The translations under genes and the position numbers were made by a program. The notes below the pieces were generated by a model. The model made no database searches. It saw nothing but the letters and a program-made list of their open reading frames with translations, and had not been told where the DNA came from. Below, one piece after another: positions 30,628 through 64,000 of a DNA stretch of 64,000 nt (position 1 is its first letter; each line of letters opens with the position of its first letter). This DNA is from Anaerolineaceae bacterium (lineage in GTDB: Bacteria; Chloroflexota; Anaerolineae; Anaerolineales; Anaerolineaceae): NCBI GenBank assembly GCA_034429975.1, contig DAOUFM010000118.1:18570-82569 (forward strand), given 5' to 3'.

Positions 30628-30640
30628 GCGGGAGGGAAGC

Positions 30641-47819: not shown

Positions 47820-47996
47820 GAATCAGGCAGATCTTAATATCTCATCCCAACCCACACCACCCCCTAATCATCTCCCATTATAAAATCTAACAAAATTCTT
47901 CCTGAATGATAAATTTAGCTGCAAATAACGATCTTTATCATATTGACTTCAATCCAACGAGGTGATAACCTAATACATAAGGCTAACGGAAGAGTT

Positions 47997-48065
47997 TATG
48001 AAAATTCTGGTAAAGCATTTTCTCTCCTTCTAAGCGGACACGTCCGATGTGTCCGCTTATATTTT
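47997..48065 (+). promoter_or_regulatory. 10-aa uORF whose stop overlaps a rho-independent terminator, upstream of gdhA
   Basis: GGAAGAG-N3-ATG. The uORF encodes MKILVKHFLSF* (47997-48032). The stem AAGCGGACAC (48031-48040) pairs with GTGTCCGCTT (48048-48057) and is followed by ATATTTT. Confidence 0.45.
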
Positions 48066-48110
48066 AAGGGCTCAACCGCTGACCAAATCTCAAGCTTACA
48101 GGAGAAATAA

Positions 48111-49397
48111 ATGGCTTCTTCAACCAATGCATTTGAAATGGCACAAGCCCAGTTCGATCATGTTGCTGAGTTGCTGCAATTAGACCCGGATGTGCGCGAG
48201 ATCCTGCGCTGGCCTTTGCGCGAATTTCAATTCCGCATCCCGGTGCGGATGGATGATGGCAGTATCCGCGTTTTTCAGGGTTTTCGCGTTCAGCACAATG
48301 ACTCCCGCGGACCAAATAAAGGCGGTATTCGTTTTCATCCGGCAGAAACGATCGATACTGTACGGGCGCTGGCAACCTGGATGACGTGGAAATGTGCCGT
48401 GGTCGATATCCCGCTGGGCGGTGGCAAGGGTGGTGTGGTGGTTGACCCTGCTACGCTTTCTACAGCCGAGAAAGAACGCCTGGTGCGTGGGTATATTCAG
48501 CAGCTCTGGAGAAATATCGGCCCCCGCCAGGACGTGCCGGCGCCAGATGTGGGCACCACGCCGCAAATGATGGGCTGGATGATGGATGAATACTCCAAAT
48601 TAACCGGTCAATATACCCCCGGCGTCATCACCGGCAAACCGGTCGGTAATGGCGGGTCGCTTGGTCGTACCGAAGCCACCGGTTTTGGCGTAATCTACAC
48701 CGTCAGGGAAGCGCTCAAACATCTCAAATTAGATCCCACAAAATGTACCGCCGCTATTCAGGGCTTTGGCAATGTCGCTCAATATGCAGCCATTGGATTT
48801 ATTGAATTCCTGGGTGGCAAGGTGATCTGCGTTTCCTATTGGGATCGTGAAGATCGTGCTTCTTACACTGTCAGCAAAGCTGATGGAATTGATCCGCATT
48901 TCTTAAGAGCCATCACCGACCAGTATGGCACCATCGATAAAGCCAAAGCCAGAGAAGCAGGCTATGTGATTGAAGATGGCGACGCCTGGATCTCCAAGGA
49001 AGTGGATGTTATCATCCCCGCTGCGTTGGAAGGCCAGATTAACGCCGACAGCGTTAAGAAGATACATGCCAGTGTAAAAATAATTGCCGAAGGCGCCAAT
49101 GGCCCCACCACCCCTGATGCAGACAAGGTCATTCAGGAGAAAGGCATTTTCCTGGTGCCCGACTTTTTATGCAATGCCGGCGGTGTGACCGTCTCTTACT
49201 TTGAAGGCGTGCAAAACGATATGAACTTCTACTGGGGCAAAGAAGAAGTGCTCGAAAAAGAAGATCAGAAAATGACCTCTGCTTTCCAGGCTGTGCTCGA
49301 AATGTCATTGAAAGAAGATGTCTACATGCGCGACGCAGCTTACATGGTCGCCATTGCCCGGGTGGTGAAAGCCATGGGGCTGCGCGGCTGGATATAA
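48111..49397 (+). CDS. gdhA: Glutamate dehydrogenase
   Basis: GGIRFHP and DIPLGGGKGGV motifs, with a GFGNV Rossmann motif. 428 aa. Confidence 0.92.
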   Translation: MASSTNAFEMAQAQFDHVAELLQLDPDVREILRWPLREFQFRIPVRMDDGSIRVFQGFRVQHNDSRGPNKGGIRFHPAETIDTVRALATWMTWKCAVVDIPLGGGKGGVVVDPATLSTAEKERLVRGYIQQLWRNIGPRQDVPAPDVGTTPQMMGWMMDEYSKLTGQYTPGVITGKPVGNGGSLGRTEATGFGVIYTVREALKHLKLDPTKCTAAIQGFGNVAQYAAIGFIEFLGGKVICVSYWDREDRASYTVSKADGIDPHFLRAITDQYGTIDKAKAREAGYVIEDGDAWISKEVDVIIPAALEGQINADSVKKIHASVKIIAEGANGPTTPDADKVIQEKGIFLVPDFLCNAGGVTVSYFEGVQNDMNFYWGKEEVLEKEDQKMTSAFQAVLEMSLKEDVYMRDAAYMVAIARVVKAMGLRGWI

Positions 49398-49417
49398 ACT
49401 GAATTTTCAAGTCAACC

Positions 49418-49455
49418 TAAAGGCTGACACGAAAAACGGTCAGCCTTTATTTTTT
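49418..49455. terminator. Bidirectional terminator
   Basis: TAAAGGCTGAC (49418-49428) pairs with GTCAGCCTTTA (49439-49449), followed by T6. Confidence 0.7.
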
Positions 49456-49704
49456 GCTTATGGACAAAAAACGGCGCAAGTTAACCCCACCGGAAGCGGT
49501 CATGGCGATTCCAGCACCAATCGCCAGCCCAATAGGGTGTTCTTTAAAATAGGAAGCATCCAGAAAAAATGTGAGAAACAAGAGGATGCCATGCAGATAG
49601 AATTGAGGGCTTTTAGTCATAAAGGCGATAAAGAAGCAAATTAACGGGCTGATGATGGTAGCCATAGAATAGACCATTGCAAGATTGTCAGAACGCCTGC
49701 CCAA
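49447..49704 (-). CDS. Small 2-TM membrane ORF overlapping the previous one in another frame
   Basis: 85-aa track ORF with no SD of its own. Internal ATGs at 49677 and 49665. Confidence 0.35.
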   Translation of the reverse strand: MGRRSDNLAMVYSMATIISPLICFFIAFMTKSPQFYLHGILLFLTFFLDASYFKEHPIGLAIGAGIAMTASGGVNLRRFLSISKK

Positions 49705-49802
49705 ATCACCACCAAACCCAGGGCAATCTCCCAGATACCATCACCCATGAATTTCAGAACCAGGTCTGTCCGCACAACCGTTTTCTTTTGTTTTTTTGCC
49801 AT
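49641..49802 (-). CDS. 53-aa small membrane ORF, possibly the 5' half of a frameshifted gene
   Basis: ATG 49802 with an AGAGG SD. My translation is MAKKQKKTVVRTDLVLKFMGDGIWEIALGLVVIWAGVLTILQWSILWLPSSAR*. It is below the track cutoff. Confidence 0.4.
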   Translation of the reverse strand: MAKKQKKTVVRTDLVLKFMGDGIWEIALGLVVIWAGVLTILQWSILWLPSSAR

Positions 49803-49859
49803 GAATTACCTCTTTTAATGGGATAAATCCATCATAGCGGAACTGCGGATACCTGTCAA

Positions 49860-50501
49860 TTAAAGGATCAATTGTCTTTGAATAGCGATTGAAACTGCAG
49901 CAACGCGACTTTCCACCCCTAGTTTTGTGAAGATATTGCCAATATGATATTTGACAGTCGAAGCGCTGATCAATAACTTCCCGGCAATTTCATTGTTGGA
50001 TAGACCATTAATAATAAACTTGAGCACATCCCGTTCTCGTTCGGTTAAATCTTCTAGCGGCAGGAGCGGATATTCATTTGAGTCAGAAAAAACTTTGCTC
50101 ACTTCAGGTGCAATCATCATGCGGCCGGCGATTGCCGATCGAATTGCCTGCGCCAGTTCCCTGGACTGCACATTCTTCATCAGATAACCGTTTGCCCCAG
50201 CCTGTAAAGCGCCTTGTAATAAAGCATCATCCAGATAACTGGTCAGAGCGATCATAGTTATTTTTGGTTGTTTCTGGCGAATAGCCCGAATGGCAGCCAA
50301 CCCTCCTATTCCGGGCATTTTCAAATCCATGAGAAGAACATCCGGCTGCAATGCCACCGTTTTCTCAATCGCTTCCTCGCCACTGGATGCCTCACCAATC
50401 AATTCAAAATCTTCAATGGTCATTAAAAAAGCACTCAATCCACTGAGAACTACAGCATGGTCGTCCACAATCAAAATTTTAATTTTTTTAGCCGCTTTCA
50501 T
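49860..50501 (-). CDS. NarL/LuxR-family response regulator (REC + HTH)
   Basis: ILIVDDH...LLMDLKMPG (receiver Asp) and LTERERDVLKFIINGLSNNEIA (LuxR HTH). Confidence 0.9.
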   Translation of the reverse strand: MKAAKKIKILIVDDHAVVLSGLSAFLMTIEDFELIGEASSGEEAIEKTVALQPDVLLMDLKMPGIGGLAAIRAIRQKQPKITMIALTSYLDDALLQGALQAGANGYLMKNVQSRELAQAIRSAIAGRMMIAPEVSKVFSDSNEYPLLPLEDLTERERDVLKFIINGLSNNEIAGKLLISASTVKYHIGNIFTKLGVESRVAAVSIAIQRQLIL

Positions 50502-50519
50502 TTACCCTCTGCGCGTTAT

Positions 50520-51089
50520 TTATTTACCTTCAATTAAATTCAATGCCAGGTGCTGAGTTTTTATCATGGCTGTTTGGAAAGCCTTTTCTTTCATTTGCAT
50601 TACCACCACCTTCGCATCGATAAACTCCATACCCAATGCTTTCGCTACTGAGATACGGTGATGACCATCCCGCACAAAATAATAAATTCCAAGCTGAACC
50701 AGTTCGACTGCTGGAACATGGTCTCCTCGTAAAAATAAATCTGAAATACATAACCAGCGCTGATGGTTGCGTTCAGACTTTGGGGCAAAATTATCATCAT
50801 AATCCTGACAACGGTTTTCTGATCCAATCACCAGGCGCAAAGGAATAGCATGCACGCCGATTTCAACCATGTTTACCGCGGTACCCTCTTGAACAAATGC
50901 AGTGAGCGGGAACAGTTCACAGGGTTTTCTTAGCAAGTTTTTGAAAAATCGGTGAAAAAAGCCTTTTAAACGCATGCGATTGTACAGGGCAAAAGATTGT
51001 TCTCGGATCATAATCGAACGCGAGGGTTCACCCCATTCGACCTCATGCCGGAAATATGTGCGGTTATCCATCGTATTTCTTGTTTTCAT
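50520..51089 (-). CDS. ParB/sulfiredoxin-like domain protein
   Basis: The C-terminal half has YYFVRDGHHRISVAKALG (the DGHHR ParB N-domain motif). The N-terminal ~100 aa are not recognised. Confidence 0.6.
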   Translation of the reverse strand: MKTRNTMDNRTYFRHEVEWGEPSRSIMIREQSFALYNRMRLKGFFHRFFKNLLRKPCELFPLTAFVQEGTAVNMVEIGVHAIPLRLVIGSENRCQDYDDNFAPKSERNHQRWLCISDLFLRGDHVPAVELVQLGIYYFVRDGHHRISVAKALGMEFIDAKVVVMQMKEKAFQTAMIKTQHLALNLIEGK

Positions 51090-51457
51090 CGTTTAGATTT
51101 TTCCTTTTCTCACTCTGAAGAATACAATAGTTAACCACACGAGTCACCCATAAACCTGCCAGTTATCTCTAAGACAGGCGATGGATATTTTTCCTCGCCT
51201 TTTGACCAGCAGAAACTTTCTTCAGGAAAAAAGATTCGCAATTCGATCGGAAATCATTACAATTAGTAGAAATAACCAGAATTGTCGTGAAATAAGCTTT
51301 TTTTTACAAAAATCACCAATAAATACCTGCAGCTAACAAAAATGTGAAGCTTTTTTGTTATTTATTTATTTCCAAATTGTTTTTTTCATATATACTATAA
51401 TCAAGTTCTATGTTTCGCTGTGAGGTTTTTGGTTTGCCAGGTATCAAGGAGTGATCT

Positions 51458-52150
51458 ATGAAAAATACTGTCCTGAATTTGCTAACGGTTCTGGTTTTGG
51501 TGGCGATTGCGGTTTTCTGTCTTATTCTCGCTGTCTTATTTATCAACCCGAATTCACCCATTAACCCATTCCCACCAGGCAAGCTACCAGAATTGTTGGT
51601 ATTACCAACTGCCACGGCAACTGAAAGACAACTCCCCACCTTCGAAGATTTGCCAGATGTTTTTCCTCCTACATCCACCCAAGCGATTGCACAATTACCA
51701 ACCCTAAGACCCTCATCAACTCCATTACCTACCTTTACCTCCTTTGTTTTACCCAGTGCAACCCCATCCAATACCCCCACCAAAACACCGACCGAAACTC
51801 CGGAAGCAACCGCTACCAGCGAGCTTTATCAGTGTTCCATTATTTTCTCGCAACCCAATGGCGCAACTTTTCCTCCCGGGGGTGATTTTGATGGAAAATG
51901 GAACCTACGCAACACCGGCACCCAGCAATGGAGTGATGAATTTGATTGGGTATTCGTCAGCGGGGATCGTTTCCAGGTCTCAGCGGATGTGGTTGACCTC
52001 AACCAATACATCAACCCCGGCAATGATGTCACCTTTATTGTCGATATGATTGCACCCAAACAACCTGGAACTTACAAAGCCAAATGGGCTTTACGTACCA
52101 ATCAGGGTTTGTTTTTCTGTGAATCAGAAATCACTCTGACCGTAAGATAA
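51458..52150 (+). CDS. Membrane-anchored protein with a Pro/Thr-rich linker and an NBR1-like Ig domain
   Basis: N-terminal TM, then a PT-rich stretch. The C-terminus GDFDGKWNLRNTGTQQW...PGTYKAKWALRT resembles the NBR1-type Ig-like domain. Confidence 0.6.
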   Translation: MKNTVLNLLTVLVLVAIAVFCLILAVLFINPNSPINPFPPGKLPELLVLPTATATERQLPTFEDLPDVFPPTSTQAIAQLPTLRPSSTPLPTFTSFVLPSATPSNTPTKTPTETPEATATSELYQCSIIFSQPNGATFPPGGDFDGKWNLRNTGTQQWSDEFDWVFVSGDRFQVSADVVDLNQYINPGNDVTFIVDMIAPKQPGTYKAKWALRTNQGLFFCESEITLTVR

Positions 52151-52160
52151 GTAGATGACA

Positions 52161-52188
52161 AAAAGGGCTGCAAAATCAGCCCTTTTTT
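52161..52188. terminator. Bidirectional terminator between convergent genes
   Basis: AAAAGGGCTG (52161-52170) pairs with CAGCCCTTTT (52177-52186). Confidence 0.75.
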
Positions 52189-52219
52189 ATTTAATAATCC
52201 TCCGGTTGATTAGAGGAAC

Positions 52220-53179
52220 TTATTTTTCCTGCCAGCTTTGAGTGTACCAGGTCAGGTACTCTCCGATATGGCTTGTCCAATAATCAGCCGTATGCCCTCC
52301 AGGGTTTACTGAATATTCCAGTGGAACCTGGTTTTGCTGTAAATATAAAACGAAGGGTTCGCTAAACTTCCGATAGGGATCCATCTCACCAATATCGAAC
52401 CAAAATTGCGGGAGGCTGTTCGTATCCTTTTGCAGCCATTCTTTTACTCTGTTCATATCTCCGGAAAAAGTGGTAAAACTGTGACCGCCAATCTTCTCAA
52501 AAGCATCCGGGTAAGCGAACCCAACCCTGACTGCCCAATTTCCACCTCTGGATAATCCTCCCAGAGCACGGTATTGGCGTTCCAGCCGAAAATTATATTG
52601 CCTGATTAACTGCGGCACCAAATCATCCACCAATGCCTGGTCATAGCGGGAGGTGTAGGAGTCCTGCAGATATAAACGTTCAAACGGCATGATAATCGCC
52701 AGCGGTTCAATCTTTTTTGCAGTGATCCACTGGTCTGCTAAATCGGTCAGCCCCAGTTTGATCCACTGATCCTGGACGCCATTTTGACCATGCAGCATGA
52801 TCAAAAATGGGTAACCCACCTCTCTTTTTGAGTTATAACAGGGAGGTAAATACACATTTGCTTTAATGGATTCAGCCAATATTTCAGAATAAAATTTTTC
52901 TTCATGGATAGTGCCTGTGGTTTCCAGGCAGGGGATTTCAGCAGCAGTTGGAGATGGCAAGATCACGGTTGGAGAAGGCGTTTTTGTCGCAGTTCGAACG
53001 AGTGTTGGGAGGATGATTTCAGTTCGCGAGATGACAACTGTTGGGATAATGACATGATCAGAGATGTTGTTTTCAGGGGTCTGCATTGGGGTCAGTTGAC
53101 AGCCACTCACAAGAATTCCTGAAATAGCAGCCGCAATAAAAAAGAGAAAAATTCCCCATTTGTATCTTGACGATTTCAT
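52220..53179 (-). CDS. Secreted lipoprotein esterase (alpha/beta hydrolase, esterase-D / enterochelin-esterase-like)
   Basis: Lipobox LVSGC. FLIMLHGQNG and ALGGLSRGGNWA (G-x-S-x-G nucleophile elbow). Confidence 0.7.
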   Translation of the reverse strand: MKSSRYKWGIFLFFIAAAISGILVSGCQLTPMQTPENNISDHVIIPTVVISRTEIILPTLVRTATKTPSPTVILPSPTAAEIPCLETTGTIHEEKFYSEILAESIKANVYLPPCYNSKREVGYPFLIMLHGQNGVQDQWIKLGLTDLADQWITAKKIEPLAIIMPFERLYLQDSYTSRYDQALVDDLVPQLIRQYNFRLERQYRALGGLSRGGNWAVRVGFAYPDAFEKIGGHSFTTFSGDMNRVKEWLQKDTNSLPQFWFDIGEMDPYRKFSEPFVLYLQQNQVPLEYSVNPGGHTADYWTSHIGEYLTWYTQSWQEK

Positions 53180-53196
53180 CTTGTTGCGATTATACT
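53167..53196 (+). promoter_or_regulatory. Promoter TTGACG-18-TATACT for tRNA-Pro
   Basis: -35 at 53167-53172 and -10 at 53191-53196, 9 nt before the tRNA 5' end. It lies within the first codons of the opposite-strand esterase gene. Confidence 0.5.
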
Positions 53197-53205
53197 CTGT
53201 TTGCT

Positions 53206-53279
53206 CGGGGTGTAGCGCAGTTGGATAGCGTACCGCGTTTGGGACGCGGGGGTCGGCGGTTCAAGTCCGCCCACCCCGA
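53206..53279 (+). tRNA. tRNA-Pro (anticodon UGG)
   Basis: Folded by hand. Acceptor CGGGGTG/CACCCCG, D stem GCGC/GCGT, anticodon stem CCGCG/CGCGG with loop TTTGGGA, T arm GGCGG-TTCAAGT-CCGCC, discriminator A. CCA is not encoded. Confidence 0.9.
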
Positions 53280-53283
53280 CAGG

Positions 53284-53308
53284 AAAACAGTCTTTCGGCT
53301 GTTTTTTT
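53284..53308 (+). terminator. Rho-independent terminator after the tRNA
   Basis: AAAACAGTC (53284-53292) pairs with GGCTGTTTT (53297-53305), followed by further Ts. Confidence 0.65.
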
Positions 53309-53398
53309 AATCAGTCTGTTTTCTTTTTTTTATTATTTATCCTTTCCATGATAAAATTTGAATTTGAGAATCATATTTAAATGAGGTGATCAGAAATT

Positions 53399-53710
53399 AT
53401 GGCTAAAATTAAATACGATGGAATATTGGAAGCAGTGCATCTGGACGCGGATGGTCAAGTAGAAATCGCTCGTATTTATGAAAAGAGAGGCGCTGTTTTT
53501 TCTGATCGTTTCCTGGTAAGTCGCGATGAGTTAATCAAACGCATTAACAAAGGCCAGAAATTTCTGCTAGGCACCCGCATACCCAAAACTGGATCGGTGT
53601 TCAATACCAGCGAGCCGGTGCGCGTGGCCTCAGTAGATGGCAAAGAGAACCTGCAGGTAGGGGAAGGGGATGCCAAAGGGGATCTGTTGACAAACGTTCC
53701 TCGTTTTTAA
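53399..53710 (+). CDS. 103-aa hypothetical protein
   Basis: GAGGTGA SD. Its stop overlaps the next start (TAATG). Confidence 0.6.
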   Translation: MAKIKYDGILEAVHLDADGQVEIARIYEKRGAVFSDRFLVSRDELIKRINKGQKFLLGTRIPKTGSVFNTSEPVRVASVDGKENLQVGEGDAKGDLLTNVPRF

Positions 53711-54453
53711 TGTCCGAGTTTTTTCTGTCGATTATTATTCCAGCACATAATGAAGAAGAACGTTTACCACCTTCTTTAGAATTGGTGGCTGATTTTGTTC
53801 AGCAGCAATCCTATCCAATTGAAGTGATTGTGGTGGAGAATGGCAGCAGTGACCAGACCCTGCAAGTTGCTCAATCCTTTCAGCAAAAAATGCCTTTTTT
53901 ACGAGTAATAAGCGAGCAGCAAAGCGGCAAGGGATTGGCAGTCAAAAGCGGTATGTTAGCTGCCAGAGGAACTTATCGCATCTTTTGTGATGCTGATTTT
54001 TCCATGCCGGTCAGCGAAATCAGCAAATTCATACCAGCAGAAAATGAATCTTATGATATTGCGATTGCCTCCCGGGAGTTACCTGGTTCCCGACGAGTGG
54101 ATGAACCGGAGTTCCGCCATTTAATTGGGCGGGTTTTTAATGCGTTGGTTCGTTATTCTTTACTACCCGGCTTGCATGACACTCAGTGCGGTTTCAAGGC
54201 CTTTCGAGGTGCAATCGTACCGCATCTTTTTAACCTGCAGACCATGTCTGGCTGGTCATTTGACGCGGAATTGCTCTTTATTGCCCAGCGCTTCCAATAT
54301 AAAATCATCGAAGTGCCTATCACCTGGCATTACAAGCCGGGTACCCGTTTACATATTTTTAAAGATTCCATCCAGATGGCATCCGACCTGTTTACGATCC
54401 GGCGTAACGCCCGGCAAGGATTGTATGACCAGAAGAACCAGGCCAGTCATTGA
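53710..54453 (+). CDS. Family 2 glycosyltransferase (dolichyl/polyprenyl-phosphate glycosyltransferase-like)
   Basis: SIIIPAHNEEERL, VVENGSSD and FCDADFS (DxD) motifs. Confidence 0.85.
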   Translation: MSEFFLSIIIPAHNEEERLPPSLELVADFVQQQSYPIEVIVVENGSSDQTLQVAQSFQQKMPFLRVISEQQSGKGLAVKSGMLAARGTYRIFCDADFSMPVSEISKFIPAENESYDIAIASRELPGSRRVDEPEFRHLIGRVFNALVRYSLLPGLHDTQCGFKAFRGAIVPHLFNLQTMSGWSFDAELLFIAQRFQYKIIEVPITWHYKPGTRLHIFKDSIQMASDLFTIRRNARQGLYDQKNQASH

Positions 54454-55078
54454 GATACCGGCGGCGCCCAATTTAGAGTATGAGTGCCAGCTTTGGGATC
54501 GAGGGGTACAAATGGTGGCTGGTGTGGATGAAGCCGGGAGAGGAGCCTGGGCTGGGCCGGTCGTGGCAGCAATGGTCATCTTCCCTAATGAGAATAATCT
54601 CGCACAGGTTCTGTTCGGTGTCCGCGACTCGAAGCAAATAAACGCTGAAAAACGAGCTTATTGGGCCGGTATCATTCAGGAACAAGCTCTCGCCTGGGGT
54701 GTTGGTTTTTCGGATCATAGCGAGATCGACCAGATAGGGATTTTACCAGCCACGCGCCTGGCTATGCAGCGGGCACTGGAGCGATTAACCATCCCGGCAC
54801 AGCATCTCTTAATCGATGCGGTTGTTCTCCCCAAAAACACCGTTCCACAAACTGCTCTGATCAAGGGCGACCAACGCAGTCTGAGCATCGCAGCTGCTTC
54901 CATCCTGGCAAAAACCACCCGGGATGCTTTTATGCAGCAAGAAGAAACCAGCTATCCAGGCTACGGCTTTACCCGCCATAAAGGCTACGGCACCCGCTTC
55001 CATCAGGCAGCGCTCAAAGAGCTTGGACCGTGCCCAATTCACCGCATGAGCTTTCGACCGCTGCGTGAGCAATCCTGA
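54425..55078 (+). CDS. rnhB: Ribonuclease HII
   Basis: VAGVDEAGRGAWAGPVVAA, DSKQ and GYGT motifs. ATG 54425 is preferred; the track ORF from 54125 runs antiphase through the GT2 gene. Confidence 0.88.
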   Translation: MTRRTRPVIEIPAAPNLEYECQLWDRGVQMVAGVDEAGRGAWAGPVVAAMVIFPNENNLAQVLFGVRDSKQINAEKRAYWAGIIQEQALAWGVGFSDHSEIDQIGILPATRLAMQRALERLTIPAQHLLIDAVVLPKNTVPQTALIKGDQRSLSIAAASILAKTTRDAFMQQEETSYPGYGFTRHKGYGTRFHQAALKELGPCPIHRMSFRPLREQS

Positions 55079-55082
55079 AGGA

Positions 55083-56387
55083 TTATTCTTTGGGTTCTGC
55101 TGGGTTAGCGCCAATAAATGTTCCATGGGGAATGATCGTGTTTTTCGGAATTACGACAATCCCATCCCGCACTGAAAATAAGGTCTCATCCATTTCAGTG
55201 CCCCTTGGAAATGGTCGGATTGTCACACCCCGTCCTATGCGCACGTTCTTATCCAGAATGGCTCCTTCAATATAAGAACCATTCCCGACTCCAATTGGAA
55301 TTTCAAAATCAAGCATACCTGGCAGGTAATCCTCACGATTACAGGAAGAAGTGCGATCATAATAATCAGCGCCCATCATAATTGTGTCAATAATCTGCAC
55401 CCCGGAACGAATTTGAGAACGCAGCCCAATGACCGAGTGGCGTATTTCAGCATGGTTGATACAACAGCCGTCCGTCAATAACACACTCTCTAATTGACTA
55501 TCTTCTATGGTAGAGCCCGGTAAAAAGCGTGGGTGCGAATAAATGGGGCTTTTCTGATCAAAGAAATTAAAAGGTGAATTTGGTCCGGTTAACAGCAAAT
55601 TGGTGTCATAAAAAGAACGAATCGTTCCAATATCTTCCCAGTAACCATCAAAATCAAATCCATACACGCGTTTATGGTCGATTGCTCCCGGAATAACATG
55701 TTTTCCAAAATCATCCATGCTGAAATTATCCAGCATTTCACATAAAACATCTGTGTTGAACATGTAAATTCCCATCGAGCCCAAAAAAGGCCGGGCTTCG
55801 TCATCACGACTCACCAGATCTGCCAGCACCTCCGGATCAGTCGGTTTTTCGGCAAAACGTGTGATTTCAAAGTTCTCATCCCGTTTTAAAATCCCAAAGC
55901 GATCGGTTTCATTTTTCCGGATAGGCTGCACTGCGATGGTAATTTCAGCATTTTTCTCCCAGTGGAAACGCGCCATTTCCTCATAGTCCATACGGTAAAG
56001 ATGATCACCCGCCAGAATTAAAACGTAAGGAGTACGGGCTGATTTGATCTCATATATTTGTTTTCTGACTGCGTCTGCGGTTCCTTGATACCAATCTTCG
56101 GTGTAAACCGTCTGCTCTGCTGCCCAAATCTGCACCCAGCCGGTGTGGAAAGCATCAAACTGGTAGGTGGCGGTGATGTGGCGATGTAAAGAGACCGAAT
56201 TGAATTGGGTTAAAACTGCCATTTTATAGATGCCAGAATTAATACAATTGCTGATGGGAATATCAATCAAACGATATTTACCGGCAATTGGCACCGCCGG
56301 TTTGGAACGCATCGAGGTTAACGGCTGTAATCGAGAACCGCGACCTCCTCCCAGTATCACCGCTAAAATCTGATTCATCGTTGGCAT
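55083..56387 (-). CDS. glgC: Glucose-1-phosphate adenylyltransferase
   Basis: ILGGGRGSRLQPLTSMRSKPAVPIAGKYRLIDIPISNCINSG. ATG 56387 lies 5 nt after a GGAGG SD; the track start is at 56411. Confidence 0.9.
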   Translation of the reverse strand: MPTMNQILAVILGGGRGSRLQPLTSMRSKPAVPIAGKYRLIDIPISNCINSGIYKMAVLTQFNSVSLHRHITATYQFDAFHTGWVQIWAAEQTVYTEDWYQGTADAVRKQIYEIKSARTPYVLILAGDHLYRMDYEEMARFHWEKNAEITIAVQPIRKNETDRFGILKRDENFEITRFAEKPTDPEVLADLVSRDDEARPFLGSMGIYMFNTDVLCEMLDNFSMDDFGKHVIPGAIDHKRVYGFDFDGYWEDIGTIRSFYDTNLLLTGPNSPFNFFDQKSPIYSHPRFLPGSTIEDSQLESVLLTDGCCINHAEIRHSVIGLRSQIRSGVQIIDTIMMGADYYDRTSSCNREDYLPGMLDFEIPIGVGNGSYIEGAILDKNVRIGRGVTIRPFPRGTEMDETLFSVRDGIVVIPKNTIIPHGTFIGANPAEPKE

Positions 56388-56545
56388 ATCAACCTCCAGC
56401 ACAATTCTCATTTAATTATAGATGAGCGAATAGAACTAGTCCAGATGTTGTTTCATCTCCTCTCATCGATTCAATTGTCTTATTTCAGAGGATGATAAAA
56501 TAAAACCAGTTCTCTCTCTTTCATTACTCAAAAATTAATGACCTC

Positions 56546-57802
56546 ATGACCCGCCCCCTAAAACCTGATCAGATACTGACCCCGCTGGGGATTGGATTAA
56601 CGCTTTCTTTACTGGGAGATTCCACCCTTTACACCGTACTGCCATCCCCGGATATTGCCAGTCAGGTTGGATTGAGTCTGGGAATGGTCGGTTTTCTCCT
56701 CGGCATCAATCGTCTGGTGCGCTTGCTCTTTAATAGTATCGCCGGCTGGATCTATGATCGCCTGCCCCGCCGCCCATTAATGCTCATTTCTCTGGCAACT
56801 GCCACTCTCTCAACTACTTTTTATGCCTTTGGATCCGGACCCTTCGTGTTGACAATTGGCCGAATTTTGTGGGGTATATCCTGGGCGGGTATGTGGATCG
56901 GAGCCAACAGCATTGCCCTGGATATTTCGAATGATTTGAATCGCGGCAGCATCAATGGGAAGTTGCAAATGTGGTACTTCATCGGCATCGCTATTTCGTC
57001 CTTTTGTGGAGGGCTCTTTACAGATCTTTTCGCTTTTCGCGGTGGTATGTGGGTCAGTGCATTTTTTGCCGCTTGCGGATGGCTGATCTGGTTACGATTT
57101 TTACCAGAAACCCGTTATTTAAAGGAAAGAACGTTTGATCCTTCTTTAAAGGAAGAAAGCAAACAGAAAACCAACTTTCCCTGGAAATTAACCATCGCCT
57201 GTGGAATCCCATTTTTTATCATTCGTGTCGTATTTATCGGTATTTTAGGCGCCACCACAATTTTATGGTTATCACAATTTATGGCAGATGGTAGTTTACT
57301 CCTGGGCGATACCATCCTGCCGCTGGCTACTTTGAGTGGCACCTTTATTGCTGTACGCCTCGTTATCAGCGTCCTTAGCGCTCCTCCGGTTGGTTGGGTT
57401 TCTGACAAACTTAATCGCCGTTGGGCGGTTTTAGTAGTGCTCTTTTTGCTTTTTGGATCTGGAGGCTTTATCATTCTGGCATCCCAAAATATTTGGGTGT
57501 CAATACTTGGGGTGATCACTTCAGCTATCGCGGGCGGGAGTATCCCGGGGATTATAACTGCAATTATTGGTGATCAAATCCCGCAGGATCACCAAAGCCG
57601 TGTGTTGGGGTTTGTTTTTTCTTTTGGTGATCTGGGTTCAGCCATCGGACCGGCGTTGGCGCTCAGTTTGATGGGCGTCATCAGTCTTCCTGCATTATTT
57701 CTTGGCTGTGCACTTTTGCTCGCTTTAACAGGTGGCTTGCTATTGATTCCAGCACTTTTTGAACATCGAAAAACAATTTTAAACGAAAAACGACTTGCAT
57801 AA
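56546..57802 (+). CDS. MFS transporter
   Basis: 418 aa, about 12 TM, with an MFS loop motif GWIYDRLPRRP. Confidence 0.8.
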   Translation: MTRPLKPDQILTPLGIGLTLSLLGDSTLYTVLPSPDIASQVGLSLGMVGFLLGINRLVRLLFNSIAGWIYDRLPRRPLMLISLATATLSTTFYAFGSGPFVLTIGRILWGISWAGMWIGANSIALDISNDLNRGSINGKLQMWYFIGIAISSFCGGLFTDLFAFRGGMWVSAFFAACGWLIWLRFLPETRYLKERTFDPSLKEESKQKTNFPWKLTIACGIPFFIIRVVFIGILGATTILWLSQFMADGSLLLGDTILPLATLSGTFIAVRLVISVLSAPPVGWVSDKLNRRWAVLVVLFLLFGSGGFIILASQNIWVSILGVITSAIAGGSIPGIITAIIGDQIPQDHQSRVLGFVFSFGDLGSAIGPALALSLMGVISLPALFLGCALLLALTGGLLLIPALFEHRKTILNEKRLA

Positions 57803-57840
57803 GAAAATGTACAGGTCGTTCAGAGTTTAGTAAACAGTAT

Positions 57841-58362
57841 TCAGGCGATTTCCAGCGGTTTTTGATTTACCTGCTGGCTCACTTTAACAGGGATGGATTC
57901 CATCAGTGCTTTTTCTGTAAAGCACATTTGTCTTGAAACCTTGATCAGATCCGCTATTTTGGTTTCTTCTTCTTCCGAGTCGATCAGAATTTCAATTTCG
58001 AAGCCATCACAAAAACCTTCAGCATCACCTTTTAAAACCGAGCCCTGTTCATGGAAATGAGCCGTCACATTCACCCGTTCATTTCGGATATTCAGCTTTC
58101 TTTTAGCCGCAACCTGCGACACATGGGAGATCAGTCAAAGCGCCATCCCGGCAACGAAATACGAAAGCGGGGTTGGTGCTGTGCCTTCTCCACCCGGCAT
58201 ATAAGAACCCTCGTCGCTAATAAAAGCGTACATGCGTCCGGTTTCCGGTTGCCCGGCCAATACCTGTTTTCTCCATTTTTCGATGGATGAAGCTTCAGCG
58301 CGAACTTCGATCCCTCTAAAACCAGTGGGAGTTTTATTGTCTGTCATGATGATTCCTTTCAT
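57841..58362 (-). CDS. OsmC/Ohr-family protein interrupted by an in-frame TGA at the catalytic Cys position; candidate selenoprotein, otherwise a pseudogene
   Basis: Track ORFs 58135-58362 and 57841-58122 are in the same frame, separated only by TGA (58137..58135) plus 4 codons. The joined sequence reads ...GGEGTAPTPLSYFVAGMAL-U-LISHVSQVAAKRKL...SRQMCFTEKAL. An alternative start at ATG 58347 has an AAGGA SD. Confidence 0.6.
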
Positions 58363-58429
58363 CCTGAATTTTTATCAGTATAGCACGGATAAAAAGAAGA
58401 AAGAATTTAATACCATGCCAATATCAACA

Positions 58430-60406
58430 TCAGGCTTTCATTAACCGCATGCCATTTAAGATGACAATCAAGACGGATGCCTGATGGATTAACATTCCAC
58501 CAGCCATATGAACCTCTCGCAGTAAGACGCCTGCCAGCAAAGCCGCTACTGTAACAAGGGCAATGAATACATTCTGGTGGATATTTCTTAAAACCGCCTT
58601 CGATAAAGAGATGGCCTGGGGAATTTTCCGTAAATCATCCGCCATCAAGGCGATGTCGGCGGTTTCGATCGCAATCCCGGAACCAGCCGCTCCCATAGCT
58701 ATCCCGATATCCGCAGAAGCCAGGGCGGGGGCATCATTAATTCCATCCCCAACCATCGCCACAACCTTATGTTCCTTTTTAAGTTGTTGAATGATTTCTA
58801 GTTTGTTTTCGGGCAACAGGTTGGCATACACATGCTCAATCCCGGCTTGTCTGGCGACCGCCTGGGCAGTCACCTCATCATCTCCTGTCAGCATGACAAT
58901 TTTCTGCAATCCGATGTGCTTCAATTCCGTGATCATTTCAGGCGACTTCCGGCGAATAGAGTCAGCAATCCCAAAAATGCCGATGATATTCTGATCCTTT
59001 GCGACCAAGACAGCGGTTTTCCCATCGGATTTCAGAATATTCAGCGCCTGTTGAACAGGTTCCGAGCAATAAATGCCCGCGTCTCCCATCAATTCTTCCG
59101 TACCAATGCGGATACGGATTCCCTGATATTGGGTTGACACTCCCTTACCGAGCAACAACTGAAATTCATCCGGTTCGGGGATTTCACCCAGACGATTGGC
59201 AGCTTCCATGATGGGTTTTGCAAGCGGATGCTCAGAATGAATTTCAGCAATCCCAGCCCAATATAAGATTGATTTCTGATCCTCGGACCAGGCATCATTA
59301 TTGTTATCTGCATTACTATCCGATAGGCTGACCTCAGTCGAGTTTTCAACCACCAGAATATCGGTTAGACGAGGTTTCCCCTCCGTCAAGGTTCCGGTTT
59401 TATCTAGGGCAATTGCCTGAATTTTGCCGGCATTTTCCAAGTATTCTCCGCCTTTGATCAAAATCCCCTGTTTGGCAGCCCGGCCAATTCCAGCCACAAT
59501 TGACACCGGAGTAGAGATAACCAGGGCACCTGGGCAGCCAATCACTAACAAAGTCAGAGATAGGTCAATATCCCGCGTGATTAAAAAAGTAAGAACGCTT
59601 AACCCAATGATCGCCGGAGTATACCATTGCGAAAAGCGCTCCATAAACCGTTGCGTGGGAGCTTTTTCTTCCTGAGCTTCCTCCACACGTTGAATGATTC
59701 GTACCAGAGTGGTATCTGCTCCAATACCGGTTGCTTTAATCTTTAACACACCATTCTGGATGATACTTCCTGCAAAAACGCGACTCCCAACTGATTTCTC
59801 CTCCGGAATCGGTTCACCAGTAATAGCACTTTCATTCACCGCTGCGATACCTTCTACCACCTCTCCATCCACTGGAATTTTAGAGCCTGGTTTAATTAAC
59901 AGGAGATCACCCCTTTGTACTTCCCCCGCAGCAATTTCCACCTGTTTTCCTTTTCTTAAGACAATCGCTGTAACAGGCACTAAATCTAATAAATCACTCA
60001 GCACTTCGCGGGTGCGGCTTAAGGTGCGTGCTTCCAGGTAGGCGCCAAACATAAAAAGAAAGGTGACAGCCGCCGCCTCCCAGTATTCCCCAATGATTAA
60101 TGCTCCAATAAAAGCAATGCTCACCAGAAGTTCAATACTAAAGGCCTTGTTACGCAGGTTAATCCAGGCGCGTTCAACAATATCCGCACCGGCGATGACG
60201 GCTGCAATTATCAGAAGCAGGTTCCCAACTAAAAAGAGAGCTGGAATTAACCTGGCTCCCAATCCAATCAGGATTAGAACCCCACTCAGAGAGGTAATAA
60301 ATTTACGGCGATTCCGGGCATCCTGATACCATTTTTTGAAGAGAGCAGCAAAAGAAATTGAGTTTTTATTGATGTTAGAAAGCTGAGACACTGGCTTCAT
60401 ATCCAA
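58430..60406 (-). CDS. P1B-type heavy-metal ATPase lacking a fused metal-binding domain; TM motif CPG
   Basis: DKTGTLT, SEHPLAKPI and GDGINDAPAL motifs. The TM motif is VIGCPGALVISTP and the last TM reads IHQASVLIVILNGMRLM. The start is TTG 60406 or ATG 60400. Confidence 0.88.
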   Translation of the reverse strand: MDMKPVSQLSNINKNSISFAALFKKWYQDARNRRKFITSLSGVLILIGLGARLIPALFLVGNLLLIIAAVIAGADIVERAWINLRNKAFSIELLVSIAFIGALIIGEYWEAAAVTFLFMFGAYLEARTLSRTREVLSDLLDLVPVTAIVLRKGKQVEIAAGEVQRGDLLLIKPGSKIPVDGEVVEGIAAVNESAITGEPIPEEKSVGSRVFAGSIIQNGVLKIKATGIGADTTLVRIIQRVEEAQEEKAPTQRFMERFSQWYTPAIIGLSVLTFLITRDIDLSLTLLVIGCPGALVISTPVSIVAGIGRAAKQGILIKGGEYLENAGKIQAIALDKTGTLTEGKPRLTDILVVENSTEVSLSDSNADNNNDAWSEDQKSILYWAGIAEIHSEHPLAKPIMEAANRLGEIPEPDEFQLLLGKGVSTQYQGIRIRIGTEELMGDAGIYCSEPVQQALNILKSDGKTAVLVAKDQNIIGIFGIADSIRRKSPEMITELKHIGLQKIVMLTGDDEVTAQAVARQAGIEHVYANLLPENKLEIIQQLKKEHKVVAMVGDGINDAPALASADIGIAMGAAGSGIAIETADIALMADDLRKIPQAISLSKAVLRNIHQNVFIALVTVAALLAGVLLREVHMAGGMLIHQASVLIVILNGMRLMKA

Positions 60407-60590
60407 CAGACTGAACGGCTTTTACTAGATCATCGCTTTTTACCAGTTGTTCATCATGTTCTACAGCAATTCGACCTGTTGAGAAGAAAACTTTCGCGCT
60501 GGAAACGCCCTTCAAGCTGGTCAGAGCTTTCTCAATTTTTGCCACACAAGAGGGGCAGGATAATTCAGCACTTCTTAAGGTTGTTTTCAT
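60375..60590 (-). CDS. HMA-domain metallochaperone-like protein (CxxC)
   Basis: 71 aa with LSCPSCVAKIEKAL. AGGAG SD 7 nt upstream. Overlaps the ATPase start by 26-32 nt. Confidence 0.8.
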   Translation of the reverse strand: MKTTLRSAELSCPSCVAKIEKALTSLKGVSSAKVFFSTGRIAVEHDEQLVKSDDLVKAVQSVGYEASVSAF

Positions 60591-60688
60591 GGTTTATCTC
60601 CTTTTGGTAATTTTTCCCAATTATAAAGGAAATAACCAGACTCTTCTCTGCGCTGGATCAGTTAATCGCAGGCAATTTCATTTTTTTT

Positions 60689-61441
60689 TTATTGTTCGGG
60701 GTTTGCCAGACTCAGAATTCCATCCCAATTAATAATTGAAATCCATTTGCGGCCGCTCTTAATCACCCCAATCCTCTGATATTGGCGCAACACCCGGCTG
60801 ACGGTTTCGGGCGTGGTTGCGGTCATTTCTGCCAGATCCTCACGCGAGATGGGGGCATTAATTAGAATTCCTTGCCCGGTGGGTTTTCCTAATTTTTCTC
60901 CTAATGTCACCAATGTCGCCGCAATTCGTTTTTCGACTGGCATCGTGCTGATCGTAAAAACCCGTTGGTTGGCAGCAATCAGTTTTTTTTCCATAATCTG
61001 CAACGATTTAATTGCCAGAGAAGGAAACTTTTCCAGAATTTGACCAAAAGCCTGACTGTTAATGCTCAATACACAGCAGGAGGTTAAAGCTTGGACAGTA
61101 TCAGGGTATATTTTTGATCCAAATACTGACAAATTTCCGAATAAATCTCCTTCCAGGAGGATATCCAGCAAGACATTGCGCTTTTCAAAGCCGGGTTGAA
61201 ATAATTTAAGCTTTCCTTCCGCAACTACGTACATTTTTTCGGCTAAATCACCGGTGAAATAAATAAATTCATTGGGTTCATAACCGAGTGAAGCAAATTG
61301 CTGATTGACCTGATCTAATTCTTCTGGCGTGAGGTCAGTAAAAAAAGGTAACCGGCCTAAGATTTTTAAACGCAGGTCGATTGAACAATGATGTTCATGC
61401 GTAAAAACCAGATTAACCGGAGATTTTCTGCGGGCATTCAT
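60689..61441 (-). CDS. Crp/Fnr-family transcriptional regulator
   Basis: cNMP-binding-like beta-barrel plus a C-terminal HTH (REDLAEMTATTPETVSRVLRQ). The N-terminus carries THEHHCS. Confidence 0.85.
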   Translation of the reverse strand: MNARRKSPVNLVFTHEHHCSIDLRLKILGRLPFFTDLTPEELDQVNQQFASLGYEPNEFIYFTGDLAEKMYVVAEGKLKLFQPGFEKRNVLLDILLEGDLFGNLSVFGSKIYPDTVQALTSCCVLSINSQAFGQILEKFPSLAIKSLQIMEKKLIAANQRVFTISTMPVEKRIAATLVTLGEKLGKPTGQGILINAPISREDLAEMTATTPETVSRVLRQYQRIGVIKSGRKWISIINWDGILSLANPEQ

Positions 61442-61687
61442 GCAATGTATTATAGCAAATCATCGTTTATTTGATGGTTTTAGGTTAACAATTTAGCGGA
61501 TTTAAGTCATAATCCCAAATCAAAACCTGAATATTTTGTTTTTTATATCAAATTCATTCGTTTTATGTTACTATTTTGTTTGTTTCTGGATAGAACATAG
61601 TTAATTAATGGTTATTTGTTGTAGAATATTGACAAAATCAGATAACAATTCAAATATAATAAACAAAAAATGTCCGAACTCTAAAAA

Positions 61688-63490
61688 ATGAAAACTGCGC
61701 ATTTGAAAATTCAGCAATCAAATCGGGTAGGAAGAATAATCATATCAATCATTTTCTTCTTCCTATACATTGGGACATTTCTTGTCGCTCAACCTCTATT
61801 GGGAAATGGCATTTCGGTATTGTCCATTTTTCCAGTAATATTGGTTATTTTGTTTTTCGGTTTGAAATGGGGAATCCTTAGCAGTGTATTTATCCTGGTT
61901 GTAAATTTCCATTTATTTATGAATTTTATTAACCCACAGGGACTATTTTTTGCATTGAAGGCTAGCATTCCTGGATTTATTATTAATTTGGTTGGGGTTT
62001 CAGCCGCGGGTGTTCTTCTGGGTTTTCATACCGGTTTTACCAAAGAGCTTGAGGAACGCGAATTATTCGAAAGGGCTTTGCAAAAAAGTGAGCAACGCTA
62101 CCGGTCACAATTTACAAACATGATTGATGGTATGGCGATTGATGAAATTATCTATGCAGATGGAGAACCGGTTGATTGGGTGATACTGGATGTAAATCCG
62201 GCTTATGAAAAAATTATGAATACAACCCGGGATGAAGTTGTTGGTAAATCTGCTACCACCCTTTACGGGTTTTTCGGTAACATCCGTCCGATCGTAAAGG
62301 ATTTTGACAAAGCGTTAAAAACAGGCCAGCCGGTTTCCAAAGAAATTTATTCAGCTTTACATGTAGGAAAAATTCTTTACACCGCTTTTTCAATGGGCGA
62401 GAATCAAGTGGCTGTTATTTTTAAAGAAATCGAAGATCAGGAAAAAGTTCTTCTGGCAGAAAAGAAACATCGCGATTATATGGACACCTTAGCCACCATT
62501 ACTTCCGCTTTAAACAAAACCATAAAATTGGATGAAGTTCTGGATATTATACTTGCCAGCATGGAGAAATTTGTTCCTTTTGATGCCGCCGATATTACTC
62601 TGATTCAAGATAATCGCTTAAAAATGGCGCGCTATAGTGGTTATGAGAAATTTGGACTGGAAGATTTTGCGAAAAATTTCGAAGTCCGGTTGGACGAAAT
62701 GTTAACCACCCATTGGATGCTGGAAAATAAAACACAATTAATTATTGCTGACACGTCAAATTCTGATCTTTGGACGACTTTCCCGGAAGTAAACTGGATC
62801 AAATCCTACTTGGGAATTCCTATCTTTATGAAAGGACAATTAACTGGTTTTCTTAATTTCCTCAGTGCGAAAAAAGGATTCTACGAAAATTTTATAGTAG
62901 ACCAAATAATCCCGTTTACAGAACAGGCTGCTTTTGCAATTGAGAACTCACGCTTGTACAAAGAAGTTCAGGAGTTAGCAGTTGTTGATCCATTAACCAA
63001 AGCTTATAACCGTCGTGGGTTTGCAGAAATTGCGAATCGTGAAATTGAAATTTCTCATCGCTTTTTCCGACCATTATCATTATTATTTTTGGACATTGAC
63101 CATTTTAAAGAGGTCAATGATGTTTTTGGACATGCCGTTGGGGATCAAATATTATTTGAAATTGCAGAGCGATGCCGAAATTCAATCAGGAATGTGGATG
63201 TCGTTAGCCGGCATGGGGGTGAAGAATTTCTAGTTTTGTTAATGGAAACCGGTTTAACCGATGGCTTAAGAACTGCCAGACGGATTCAGGCAATCATAAA
63301 AGATTATCCATTTCAAACAGTAGCCGGCCCGATTTCAATCACCGTATCGGTGGGTGTGGCGGAGTTTAATCATCAGGTTGAAGGATTGGATGCTTTGATC
63401 CATAATGCCGATATGGCTTTGTACAAAGCCAAATCCAGCGGCCGTAATCAGGTAATTGCTTTCCAATCCCTGGATGAAAATTCAAATTAA
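61688..63490 (+). CDS. Membrane-anchored PAS-GAF-GGDEF diguanylate cyclase
   Basis: About 5 N-terminal TM segments, then PAS-like and GAF-like regions. Intact active site SRHGGEEFLVLL. Confidence 0.85.
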   Translation: MKTAHLKIQQSNRVGRIIISIIFFFLYIGTFLVAQPLLGNGISVLSIFPVILVILFFGLKWGILSSVFILVVNFHLFMNFINPQGLFFALKASIPGFIINLVGVSAAGVLLGFHTGFTKELEERELFERALQKSEQRYRSQFTNMIDGMAIDEIIYADGEPVDWVILDVNPAYEKIMNTTRDEVVGKSATTLYGFFGNIRPIVKDFDKALKTGQPVSKEIYSALHVGKILYTAFSMGENQVAVIFKEIEDQEKVLLAEKKHRDYMDTLATITSALNKTIKLDEVLDIILASMEKFVPFDAADITLIQDNRLKMARYSGYEKFGLEDFAKNFEVRLDEMLTTHWMLENKTQLIIADTSNSDLWTTFPEVNWIKSYLGIPIFMKGQLTGFLNFLSAKKGFYENFIVDQIIPFTEQAAFAIENSRLYKEVQELAVVDPLTKAYNRRGFAEIANREIEISHRFFRPLSLLFLDIDHFKEVNDVFGHAVGDQILFEIAERCRNSIRNVDVVSRHGGEEFLVLLMETGLTDGLRTARRIQAIIKDYPFQTVAGPISITVSVGVAEFNHQVEGLDALIHNADMALYKAKSSGRNQVIAFQSLDENSN

Positions 63491-63532
63491 TAAAAATTTT
63501 TATACCCCTTGTGGGTACCTCCGATCTCGTAA

Positions 63533-63560
63533 TAAAAAAAGACCTCTCGCGAAGTCTTTT
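63533..63560. terminator. Bidirectional terminator-like hairpin
   Basis: AAAAGAC...GTCTTTT with an inner TCGCGA palindrome, lying between convergent genes. Confidence 0.45.
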
Positions 63561-63646
63561 GCTCAGGCGGGAGCGACGGGGTTCACCTTATATCCAAGTA
63601 ATTTCGAAAGAATTTAAGTAAATGCACAAACAATAATTTTGATTTT

Positions 63647-64000
63647 TTAATCTGCTAATCTGCGCAACAGATCATTAAAATATTGTTGGAATTCACTGGA
63701 GATAATATCTTTTTGCGCTGCTCGCGGCAAAATTGATTGAAAGTGCTTCTTTAACTCGTCCAAATCGATGAAATTCGATTTAACAAGAAATACCACATCC
63801 TCCATGTCACTTTCAAATCCTCGCGCAATTTTACTGATCGCAATGGTGTATAGATCGAACAAATAAACTTTAATCTGACCGAACCGACCAATAAATTTTC
63901 TACGAGTTTCCGCTCCTGCAGGAAGTGGAACAAATTCAGCTATAGGCACTTCTTCAATATCCAACTGATACTCAACTGCCAGCTCGTTCATAATCGTTTC
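63647..64000 (-). CDS. Hypothetical protein, probably 5'-truncated by the window end (possibly the C-terminal part of a nucleotidyltransferase-fold protein)
   Basis: 114-aa ORF from ATG 63991, but the frame stays open to position 64000. The functional call is tentative. Confidence 0.5.
   Translation of the reverse strand, partial: ETIMNELAVEYQLDIEEVPIAEFVPLPAGAETRRKFIGRFGQIKVYLFDLYTIAISKIARGFESDMEDVVFLVKSNFIDLDELKKHFQSILPRAAQKDIISSEFQQYFNDLLRRLAD

Follow-up and report, generated by a model that had tools for sequence, protein, structure and literature searches.

OsmC-like selenoproteins have been known since 2005, when Zhang, Fomenko and Gladyshev reported, from the Sargasso Sea selenoproteome, an OsmC-like family of three genes with the motif UxxT and belonging to COG1765 (PMC1088965), and they are also listed in reviews from 2022 and 2026. 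Precisely this family is covered by a curated NCBI model, NF041052 "OsmC-related (seleno)protein", and NCBI has given this name, for example, to a protein encoded in an Anaerolineales MAG (P0045). Here we analyze one gene within a 64-kb stretch of DNA, the whole of which we refer to as the window, and we find that it is a plain member of this already published, curated selenoprotein family, so that it represents nothing new in kind. The window gene and P0045 are alike in length, in both redox positions and in lineage (Anaerolineae), and apart from P0045 being the Cys form and the window gene the predicted selenocysteine (Sec) form, nothing of note differs between them. Compared by description with the Sargasso Sea family, the window gene has the same OsmC-like domain, with its predicted Sec likewise placed as the N-terminal of the two redox residues, and it too has Cys homologues and a predicted bacterial SECIS (bSECIS) downstream; the two differ in motif (UxxT in the Sargasso Sea family, U-L-I-S, i.e., UxxS, in the window) and in source (marine plankton vs. 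Anaerolineae). An earlier, sequence-only reading of this DNA had stated that computational surveys of selenoproteomes include OsmC-like proteins, and the 2005 study bears this out (PMC1088965).

The Ohr/OsmC hydroperoxide reductases with solved structures (3eer, 6mjn and 1nye) and the OsmC-like structure 3cje share the fold and both redox positions with the window protein, with 3cje being the closest. For the RNA element, a comparison is offered by the SECIS of E. coli fdhF, in which the loop GGU occupies nt 22-24 counted from the U of UGA. The fdhF SECIS has a short G+C-rich upper stem with an A-U closure, a loop starting with GGU and a GCAGGU string, and it lies inside the coding region after the UGA, all of which the window hairpin has as well; the window GGU is instead at nt 24-26, its stem is just 5-6 bp, and the bulged U and lower stem of the fdhF SECIS are not evident.

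A single reading frame interrupted by an in-frame UGA

The ORF list and translation of the window place two minus-strand open reading frames, 58362..58135 and 58122..57841, in one common frame, with only a TGA (58137..58135) and the four codons CTG ATC TCC CAT lying between them, and our re-reading of the sequence agrees with the sequence-only reading on this arrangement. The joined product reads ...TPLSYFVAGMAL-[UGA]-LISHVSQVAAK...SRQMCFTEKAL... and comprises 173 codons plus a terminal stop when counted from 58362. The figure of 173 codons put forward earlier is therefore right as a count from that position, but the ATG at 58347 (MTDNK...) is more likely the true start, because this Met is invariant in homologues, is the start chosen by gene callers in identical contigs, and is preceded at a distance of 5 nt by a Shine-Dalgarno-like AAAGGAA (58353..58359, minus strand), a putative ribosome-binding site that we read from the letters. 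Starting at 58362 instead adds five codons (MKGII). From 58347, the predicted OsmC-related selenoprotein CDS (57841..58347, minus strand), identified by translation and by the Pfam OsmC and NCBIfam NF041052 models, has 168 codons including the Sec codon, followed by a terminal TGA stop at 57843..57841, and the in-frame UGA is codon 71, i.e., the predicted Sec is residue 71 of 168. For annotation, this means that the two short ORFs are to be merged as one 168-residue selenoprotein.

TGA otherwise behaves as an ordinary stop codon in the window. It ends 14 of 37 open frames of at least 250 codons, as well as the selenoprotein gene itself, and we therefore consider that the standard code applies; on this stop-codon usage we reject genetic codes 4 and 25. 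A six-frame scan of the window for other genes broken by a single TGA found only the OsmC-related gene to be plausible.

Approximately 20 nt past the stop of the gene, and between convergent gene ends, we observe a terminator-like hairpin followed by a U-rich run (57788..57821, minus strand), which has a minimum free energy of -13.4 kcal/mol and z = -3.31, with 1 of 200 shuffles folding equally well, and which may act as a terminator. A simple consensus terminator scan missed this hairpin. The stop of the convergent MFS transporter gene (57802) is located inside it.

Protein family, fold and predicted active site

For profile searches, a Cys was put in place of the in-frame stop. The resulting protein matched NCBIfam NF041052 with 130 bits against a cutoff of 95 (E = 6e-38, 141 of 144 profile positions) and Pfam OsmC PF02566 with 50.5 bits against a gathering threshold of 27.5 (E = 2.8e-13), which confirms the OsmC/Ohr membership that had been assigned from the layout of the protein. 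Ohr models scored far under their cutoffs (TIGR03561, 25.5 vs. 88.85; NF052637, 34.9 vs. 240). Among solved structures, the top sequence match is the uncharacterized OsmC-like protein 3cje from Jannaschia (E = 8e-9), with the Ohr structures 3eer and 6mjn next. For a Foldseek search we used the AlphaFold (AF2) model of P0003, a Cys-type homologue with 73% identity (mean pLDDT 86.5); the search gave 61 matches at E <= 0.001; all of the best 50 of these, which are those listed, are OsmC/Ohr structures from the PDB, and 3cje is the first of them (TM 0.71/0.80).

Alignment with these structures places the UGA (58135..58137, minus strand) in the column of the first Cys of the Ohr structures 3eer and 6mjn (AAC-F) and of the OsmC-like 3cje, i.e., where proteins with the OsmC/Ohr fold have their peroxidatic Cys, which is where the sequence-only reading had located it. 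The column of Cys142 (QMCFTE) is that of the second Cys in the same three structures. This Cys, which had been noted as retained within SRQMCFTEKAL, is encoded by the TGC at 57922..57924 (minus strand), is invariant in homologues and is the predicted resolving Cys. The window protein thus has both redox positions, with U71 on the long helix and C142 near the C-terminal helices.

In Ohr proteins, the Glu of the NPE motif is catalytic and lies approximately 10 residues before the peroxidatic Cys. In the window protein, and in 3cje alike, it is a Leu (TPL) that aligns with this Glu, so that, compared with Ohr, the window protein has both a predicted Sec for the first Cys and a Leu for the NPE Glu. 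The presence of Leu at this position weakens the case for a specific peroxidase mechanism and leaves the substrate uncertain; judged by its family, the chances that the window protein would carry out peroxidase chemistry appear to us to be about even. It is also conceivable, if rather unlikely, that the Anaerolineae OsmC-related selenoproteins constitute a distinct selenoenzyme and not an Ohr/OsmC-type hydroperoxide reductase. Such a reading is allowed by the lack of the Ohr Glu, by the nearest solved relative, 3cje, being uncharacterized, and by the dominance of Sec (71 of 80 species).

A further feature of the active site varies with the form of the protein. The residue two past the second Cys tracks the Sec/Cys state: 45 of the 46 Sec-type entries listed have C-F-T, and 66 of the 68 Cys-type entries listed have C-F-A (one of them C-Y-A). 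This Thr/Ala switch beside the second Cys may be a compensatory active-site change, and if these proteins were a distinct selenoenzyme, Sec and Cys forms would interchange together with Thr and Ala at this position near the partner Cys. In the window, the Thr codon after Cys142 is at 57919..57921.

Conservation of the UGA and of the downstream reading frame

Using one genome per species (GTDB), we collected 80 loci, nearly all of them from Anaerolineae, and nearly all assigned to Anaerolineaceae, Anaerolinea, Bellilinea or Leptolinea. The codon in the Sec column is TGA in 71 of these 80 species-representative genomes, TGC in seven and TGT in two. An alignment of homologues had been proposed as a check of the sequence-only reading, and its outcome is that the column holds either TGA or a Cys codon, with a downstream hairpin that covaries in the TGA genes (described below). 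Among the TGA-type loci is that of Bellilinea caldifistulae GOMI-1 (L060), which is in culture and would thus be open to tests of selenium incorporation and enzyme activity.

A search of protein databases returned 125 homologues, and the best 120 of these were classified. Cys occupies the column in 68 of these 120 and Trp ("W") in five, while six entries end exactly before it (...GMAL) and approximately 40 begin just after it. The entries with W include the two nearest relatives (83-84% identity). Sec-type members are therefore represented in public collections either with a Trp at the Sec position (P0001, P0002, P0015, P0043 and P0046) or as approximately 46 N- or C-terminal fragments, and since TGA is normally a stop in the window, we regard the W entries as gene-caller artefacts, i.e., as TGA translated under code 4. 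Many members of this family are thus present in public collections in fragmented form, or with a Trp that wrongly stands in for Sec. In one of the N-terminal fragments, P0116, a glyoxalase-like domain is joined on upstream.

Analysis of the sequence past the TGA demonstrated that the frame remains open for 94-103 codons, with no stops, in 72 of 72 TGA-type genes. Codon-position entropies in these genes, given for positions 1/2/3, are 0.29/0.14/1.43 upstream of the UGA, 0.31/0.10/1.21 for the four codons right past it, and 0.50/0.39/1.27 over codons +1 to +33 (72 genes), so that variation is gathered at third codon positions straight after the TGA. The GTG at 58122, where the second ORF would restart, is replaced in approximately 20 of 72 genes by CTG, GTT, ATA, CTT, CTA or GTA, which is not a recognized start, and this argues that the two halves are not separate genes.

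Three independent assemblies (ERZ795108, SRR8427163 and SRR28719892) contain exactly this gene, including its TGA, and a near-identical copy that retains both the TGA and the hairpin is found in SRR28263014; the protein fragment of the gene is indexed on at least 23 contigs from several sequencing runs. The recurrence of the same TGA gene in independent assemblies excludes a sequencing error. One of these contigs (ENA ERZ795108, NODE_543; L081) contains a 16-kb stretch that is 99.98% identical to window positions 47841..64000, and the organism is recurrent across samples. Another locus, on a 3.9-kb contig labelled Syntrophomonadaceae bacterium (SLSE01000177.1; L066), has a TGA gene of the usual Anaerolineae type together with the same SECIS, and may be a mis-binned contig or a case of lateral transfer.

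A covarying hairpin downstream of the UGA

The sequence-only reading had drawn attention to a hairpin, GUCGC-AGGUU-GCGGC, at 58120..58106, given as 20 nt downstream of the UGA, and our coordinates agree, with 20 nt lying between the UGA and the GGU. The candidate bSECIS hairpin (58106..58120, minus strand) begins 14 nt past the UGA and is made up of GUCGC (58120..58116), AGGUU (58115..58111) and GCGGC (58110..58106). The GUCGC/GCGGC stem has 5 bp, one of which is a U.G pair, and an A-U closure within the loop extends it to 6 bp with a GGU triloop (58114..58112). Counting the U of UGA as 1, the GGU occupies nt 24-26, and the distance from the UGA to the A of the loop is 19 nt.

The published bSECIS criteria are a loop of the form N1-G-[G|U]-N-N2, an apical loop of 3-9 nt, a stem of 4-16 bp and a UGA-loop spacing of 16-37 nt, together with an energy of -7.5 kcal/mol or lower (PMC13188914). 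The window hairpin, with its loop A-G-G-U-U, stem of 5-6 bp and spacing of 19-20 nt, lies within this pattern as far as loop, stem and spacing are concerned. Its energy is -7.2 kcal/mol, narrowly short of -7.5, a shortfall that is due to the U.G pair and that was obtained with an energy model that may differ from the published one; 69 of 71 relatives reach -7.5. When the region 58080-58140 was folded as a single sequence, z was +0.81 and the hairpin, which is too small for such a test to be informative, was not part of the minimum free energy structure. Folded alone, the hairpin is therefore no better than chance, and the case for its being real has to be made entirely by comparison across species. 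Rfam returned no SECIS family for the window at the gathering threshold, and at E <= 10 on 58040-58200 it likewise returned no SECIS family, with only a chance match to an lncRNA. The core SECIS string CGCAGGTNGCG has exactly one occurrence in the window, and no UGA-associated copies of it were found in the flanks of related loci.

Comparison of the 71 TGA-type sequences, which align over the hairpin without gaps, is highly suggestive of selection on the RNA structure. The spacing between the UGA and the hairpin does not differ among the 71 genes, each of the 71 sequences can form the complete set of five stem pairs with no pair broken, and the string CGC-AGGU-N-GCG is invariant. Both basal pairs covary: the pair between nt 24 and 38 of the alignment is GC in 58 sequences, UA in eight, AU in four and GU in one, and the pair between nt 25 and 37 is UA in 42, UG in 23 and AU in six. 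The covariation score is 0.223 compared to a mean of 0.081 for shuffles, with 0 of 500 shuffles reaching 0.223, and in a control where the 3' partners were slid by 1-3 columns, the score was at most 0.072. This covariation passes through amino-acid changes, for example, V-S...A-T, I-S...A-I, V-S...A-K and V-T...A-S.

Codon usage across the hairpin points in the same direction. At Ser +3, which is outside the stem, the four TCN codons are evenly used (20, 20, 16 and 15 genes), whereas codons in the stem region are frozen, with Ser +6 being TCG in 66 of 66 genes, Gln +7 CAG in 72 of 72 and Ala +9 GCG in 72 of 72; Val +8 is GTT in 64 of 72 TGA-type genes. The nine Cys-type genes retain only 0-2 of the five stem pairs, i.e., the hairpin is lost in genes with a Cys codon at the column. 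The proposal of the sequence-only reading, a candidate Sec-encoding UGA followed by a SECIS, is thus upheld by a TGA in 71 and a Cys codon in 9 of 80 species, and by a hairpin that covaries in the TGA genes and is absent from the Cys genes.

Selenocysteine as the predicted reading of the UGA

We conclude that the UGA at 58137..58135 is very probably decoded as selenocysteine, and that the two ORFs represent one intact OsmC-related selenoprotein gene; we give this reading, which we base on comparison of sequences, a probability of approximately 0.93. It is favored by the conservation of the UGA, by the Cys that homologues have in this column, by coding constraint that extends across and past the UGA, and by a covarying hairpin that occurs only in the UGA-type genes. 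As such, the gene provides a minimal bacterial SECIS from Anaerolineae that is cleanly supported by covariation.

Each of the other explanations accounts for part of these observations. That gene callers split the gene in two, and that Cys-type relatives exist, would both be expected if the gene were a pseudogene, in which a TGY-to-TGA nonsense mutation of a Cys-type OsmC gene has left a truncated product of 70-75 residues or nothing at all. This was the alternative named in the sequence-only reading, and it is excluded, to very near certainty, by a TGA that 71 of the 80 species have in common at this codon, by a downstream frame that is open in 72 of 72 genes and in which variation is third-position-biased, and by the identical sequence in independent assemblies; a pseudogene would also not be expected to preserve its hairpin through covariation and frozen synonymous sites. 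A split protein, in which translation terminates at the UGA and re-initiates at the GTG at 58122, and in which the two halves then assemble as an OsmC fold without the first Cys, agrees with the location of this GTG four codons past the TGA and with the many database entries that begin there. We find it just as hard to credit, in that the intervening four codons are under coding constraint (0.31/0.10/1.21, as above), the restart codon is not a recognized start in approximately 20 of 72 genes, and neither the Cys homologues nor the covariation of the hairpin are explained by it.

The UGA might also be read through but not as Sec, being translated either as Trp or Gly under code 4 or 25, or as Cys by a tRNA(Sec)-like Cys-tRNA acting at a UGA with a SECIS; such tRNA(Sec)-like Cys-tRNAs were reportedly described by Mukai et al. 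2016. The five database entries that give W at the codon are in keeping with the first of these possibilities, but 14 of the 37 long frames in the window, and this gene as well, end in TGA. In addition, a SECIS that is under strong purifying selection, in a family whose other members simply use a Cys codon, would suggest that the UGA gives something that a Cys codon does not. We therefore regard non-Sec read-through as a very unlikely explanation, although not quite as unlikely as a pseudogene or a split protein.

Under the preferred reading, i.e., decoding of UGA71 as Sec, the hairpin would function as a bacterial SECIS whose GGU loop is presented to SelB, the elongation factor specific for Sec, and SelB would bring Sec-tRNA(Sec) to the ribosome at UGA71 in place of release factor 2. 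On the long OsmC helix, the selenol of residue 71 would then be the peroxidatic or redox-active center. By analogy with the two redox positions of the family, this selenol may reduce a hydroperoxide or another oxidant and then form a selenenylsulfide with Cys142, which a thiol donor would presumably recycle. No member of this family is known to have been shown by experiment to contain selenium.

Selenocysteine machinery

Our searches for the genes required for Sec decoding covered the window and related loci. No tRNA-Sec was found in the 64-kb window (ARAGORN and Rfam) or in 60 related loci (ARAGORN), and tblastn searches with approximate E. coli SelA, SelB and SelD queries found no selA, selB or selD in the window or in the sequences on either side of the related genes. 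The approximate SelD query gave a weak match at 32048..32335 (plus strand), inside an ORF of 797 residues (30524..32917), with 27.6% identity over 98 residues (E = 3e-5); we rejected this as SelD, and the match probably reflects only an AIR-synthase-type domain that SelD has in common with a larger protein such as PurL. In the wider lineage, SelB and Sec formate dehydrogenases have been described from single-cell genomes of Anaerolineales, and SelB is also encoded by A. thermophila (PMC4959059); tRNA-Sec (PMC5389517) and selenoproteins (PMC1794560) have also been reported in Chloroflexi. From this lineage literature we infer that SelA, SelB, SelD and tRNA-Sec are encoded in this genome.

Gene neighborhood

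The genes around the OsmC-related gene are, in order, a Crp-family regulator, an HMA protein, a P-type ATPase, the OsmC-related gene itself and the convergent MFS transporter gene. The Crp-HMA-ATPase-OsmC arrangement is common only to the four closest relatives, and the convergent MFS gene to nine; with synteny limited to the closest relatives, we draw no functional inference at the level of an operon. Within this region, a 71-residue ORF encoding an HMA (CPSC) metal-binding protein (60375..60590, minus strand) overlaps the start of the P-type ATPase ORF (58430..60406, minus strand) in a different frame. The overlap recurs in the four closest relatives (L001, L002, L006 and L080) as well as in the identical contigs, in which gene calling gives two separate genes with a 17-nt overlap. 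Because the same overlap is present in all of these, it looks like a real chaperone-plus-pump pair and not a frameshift error.
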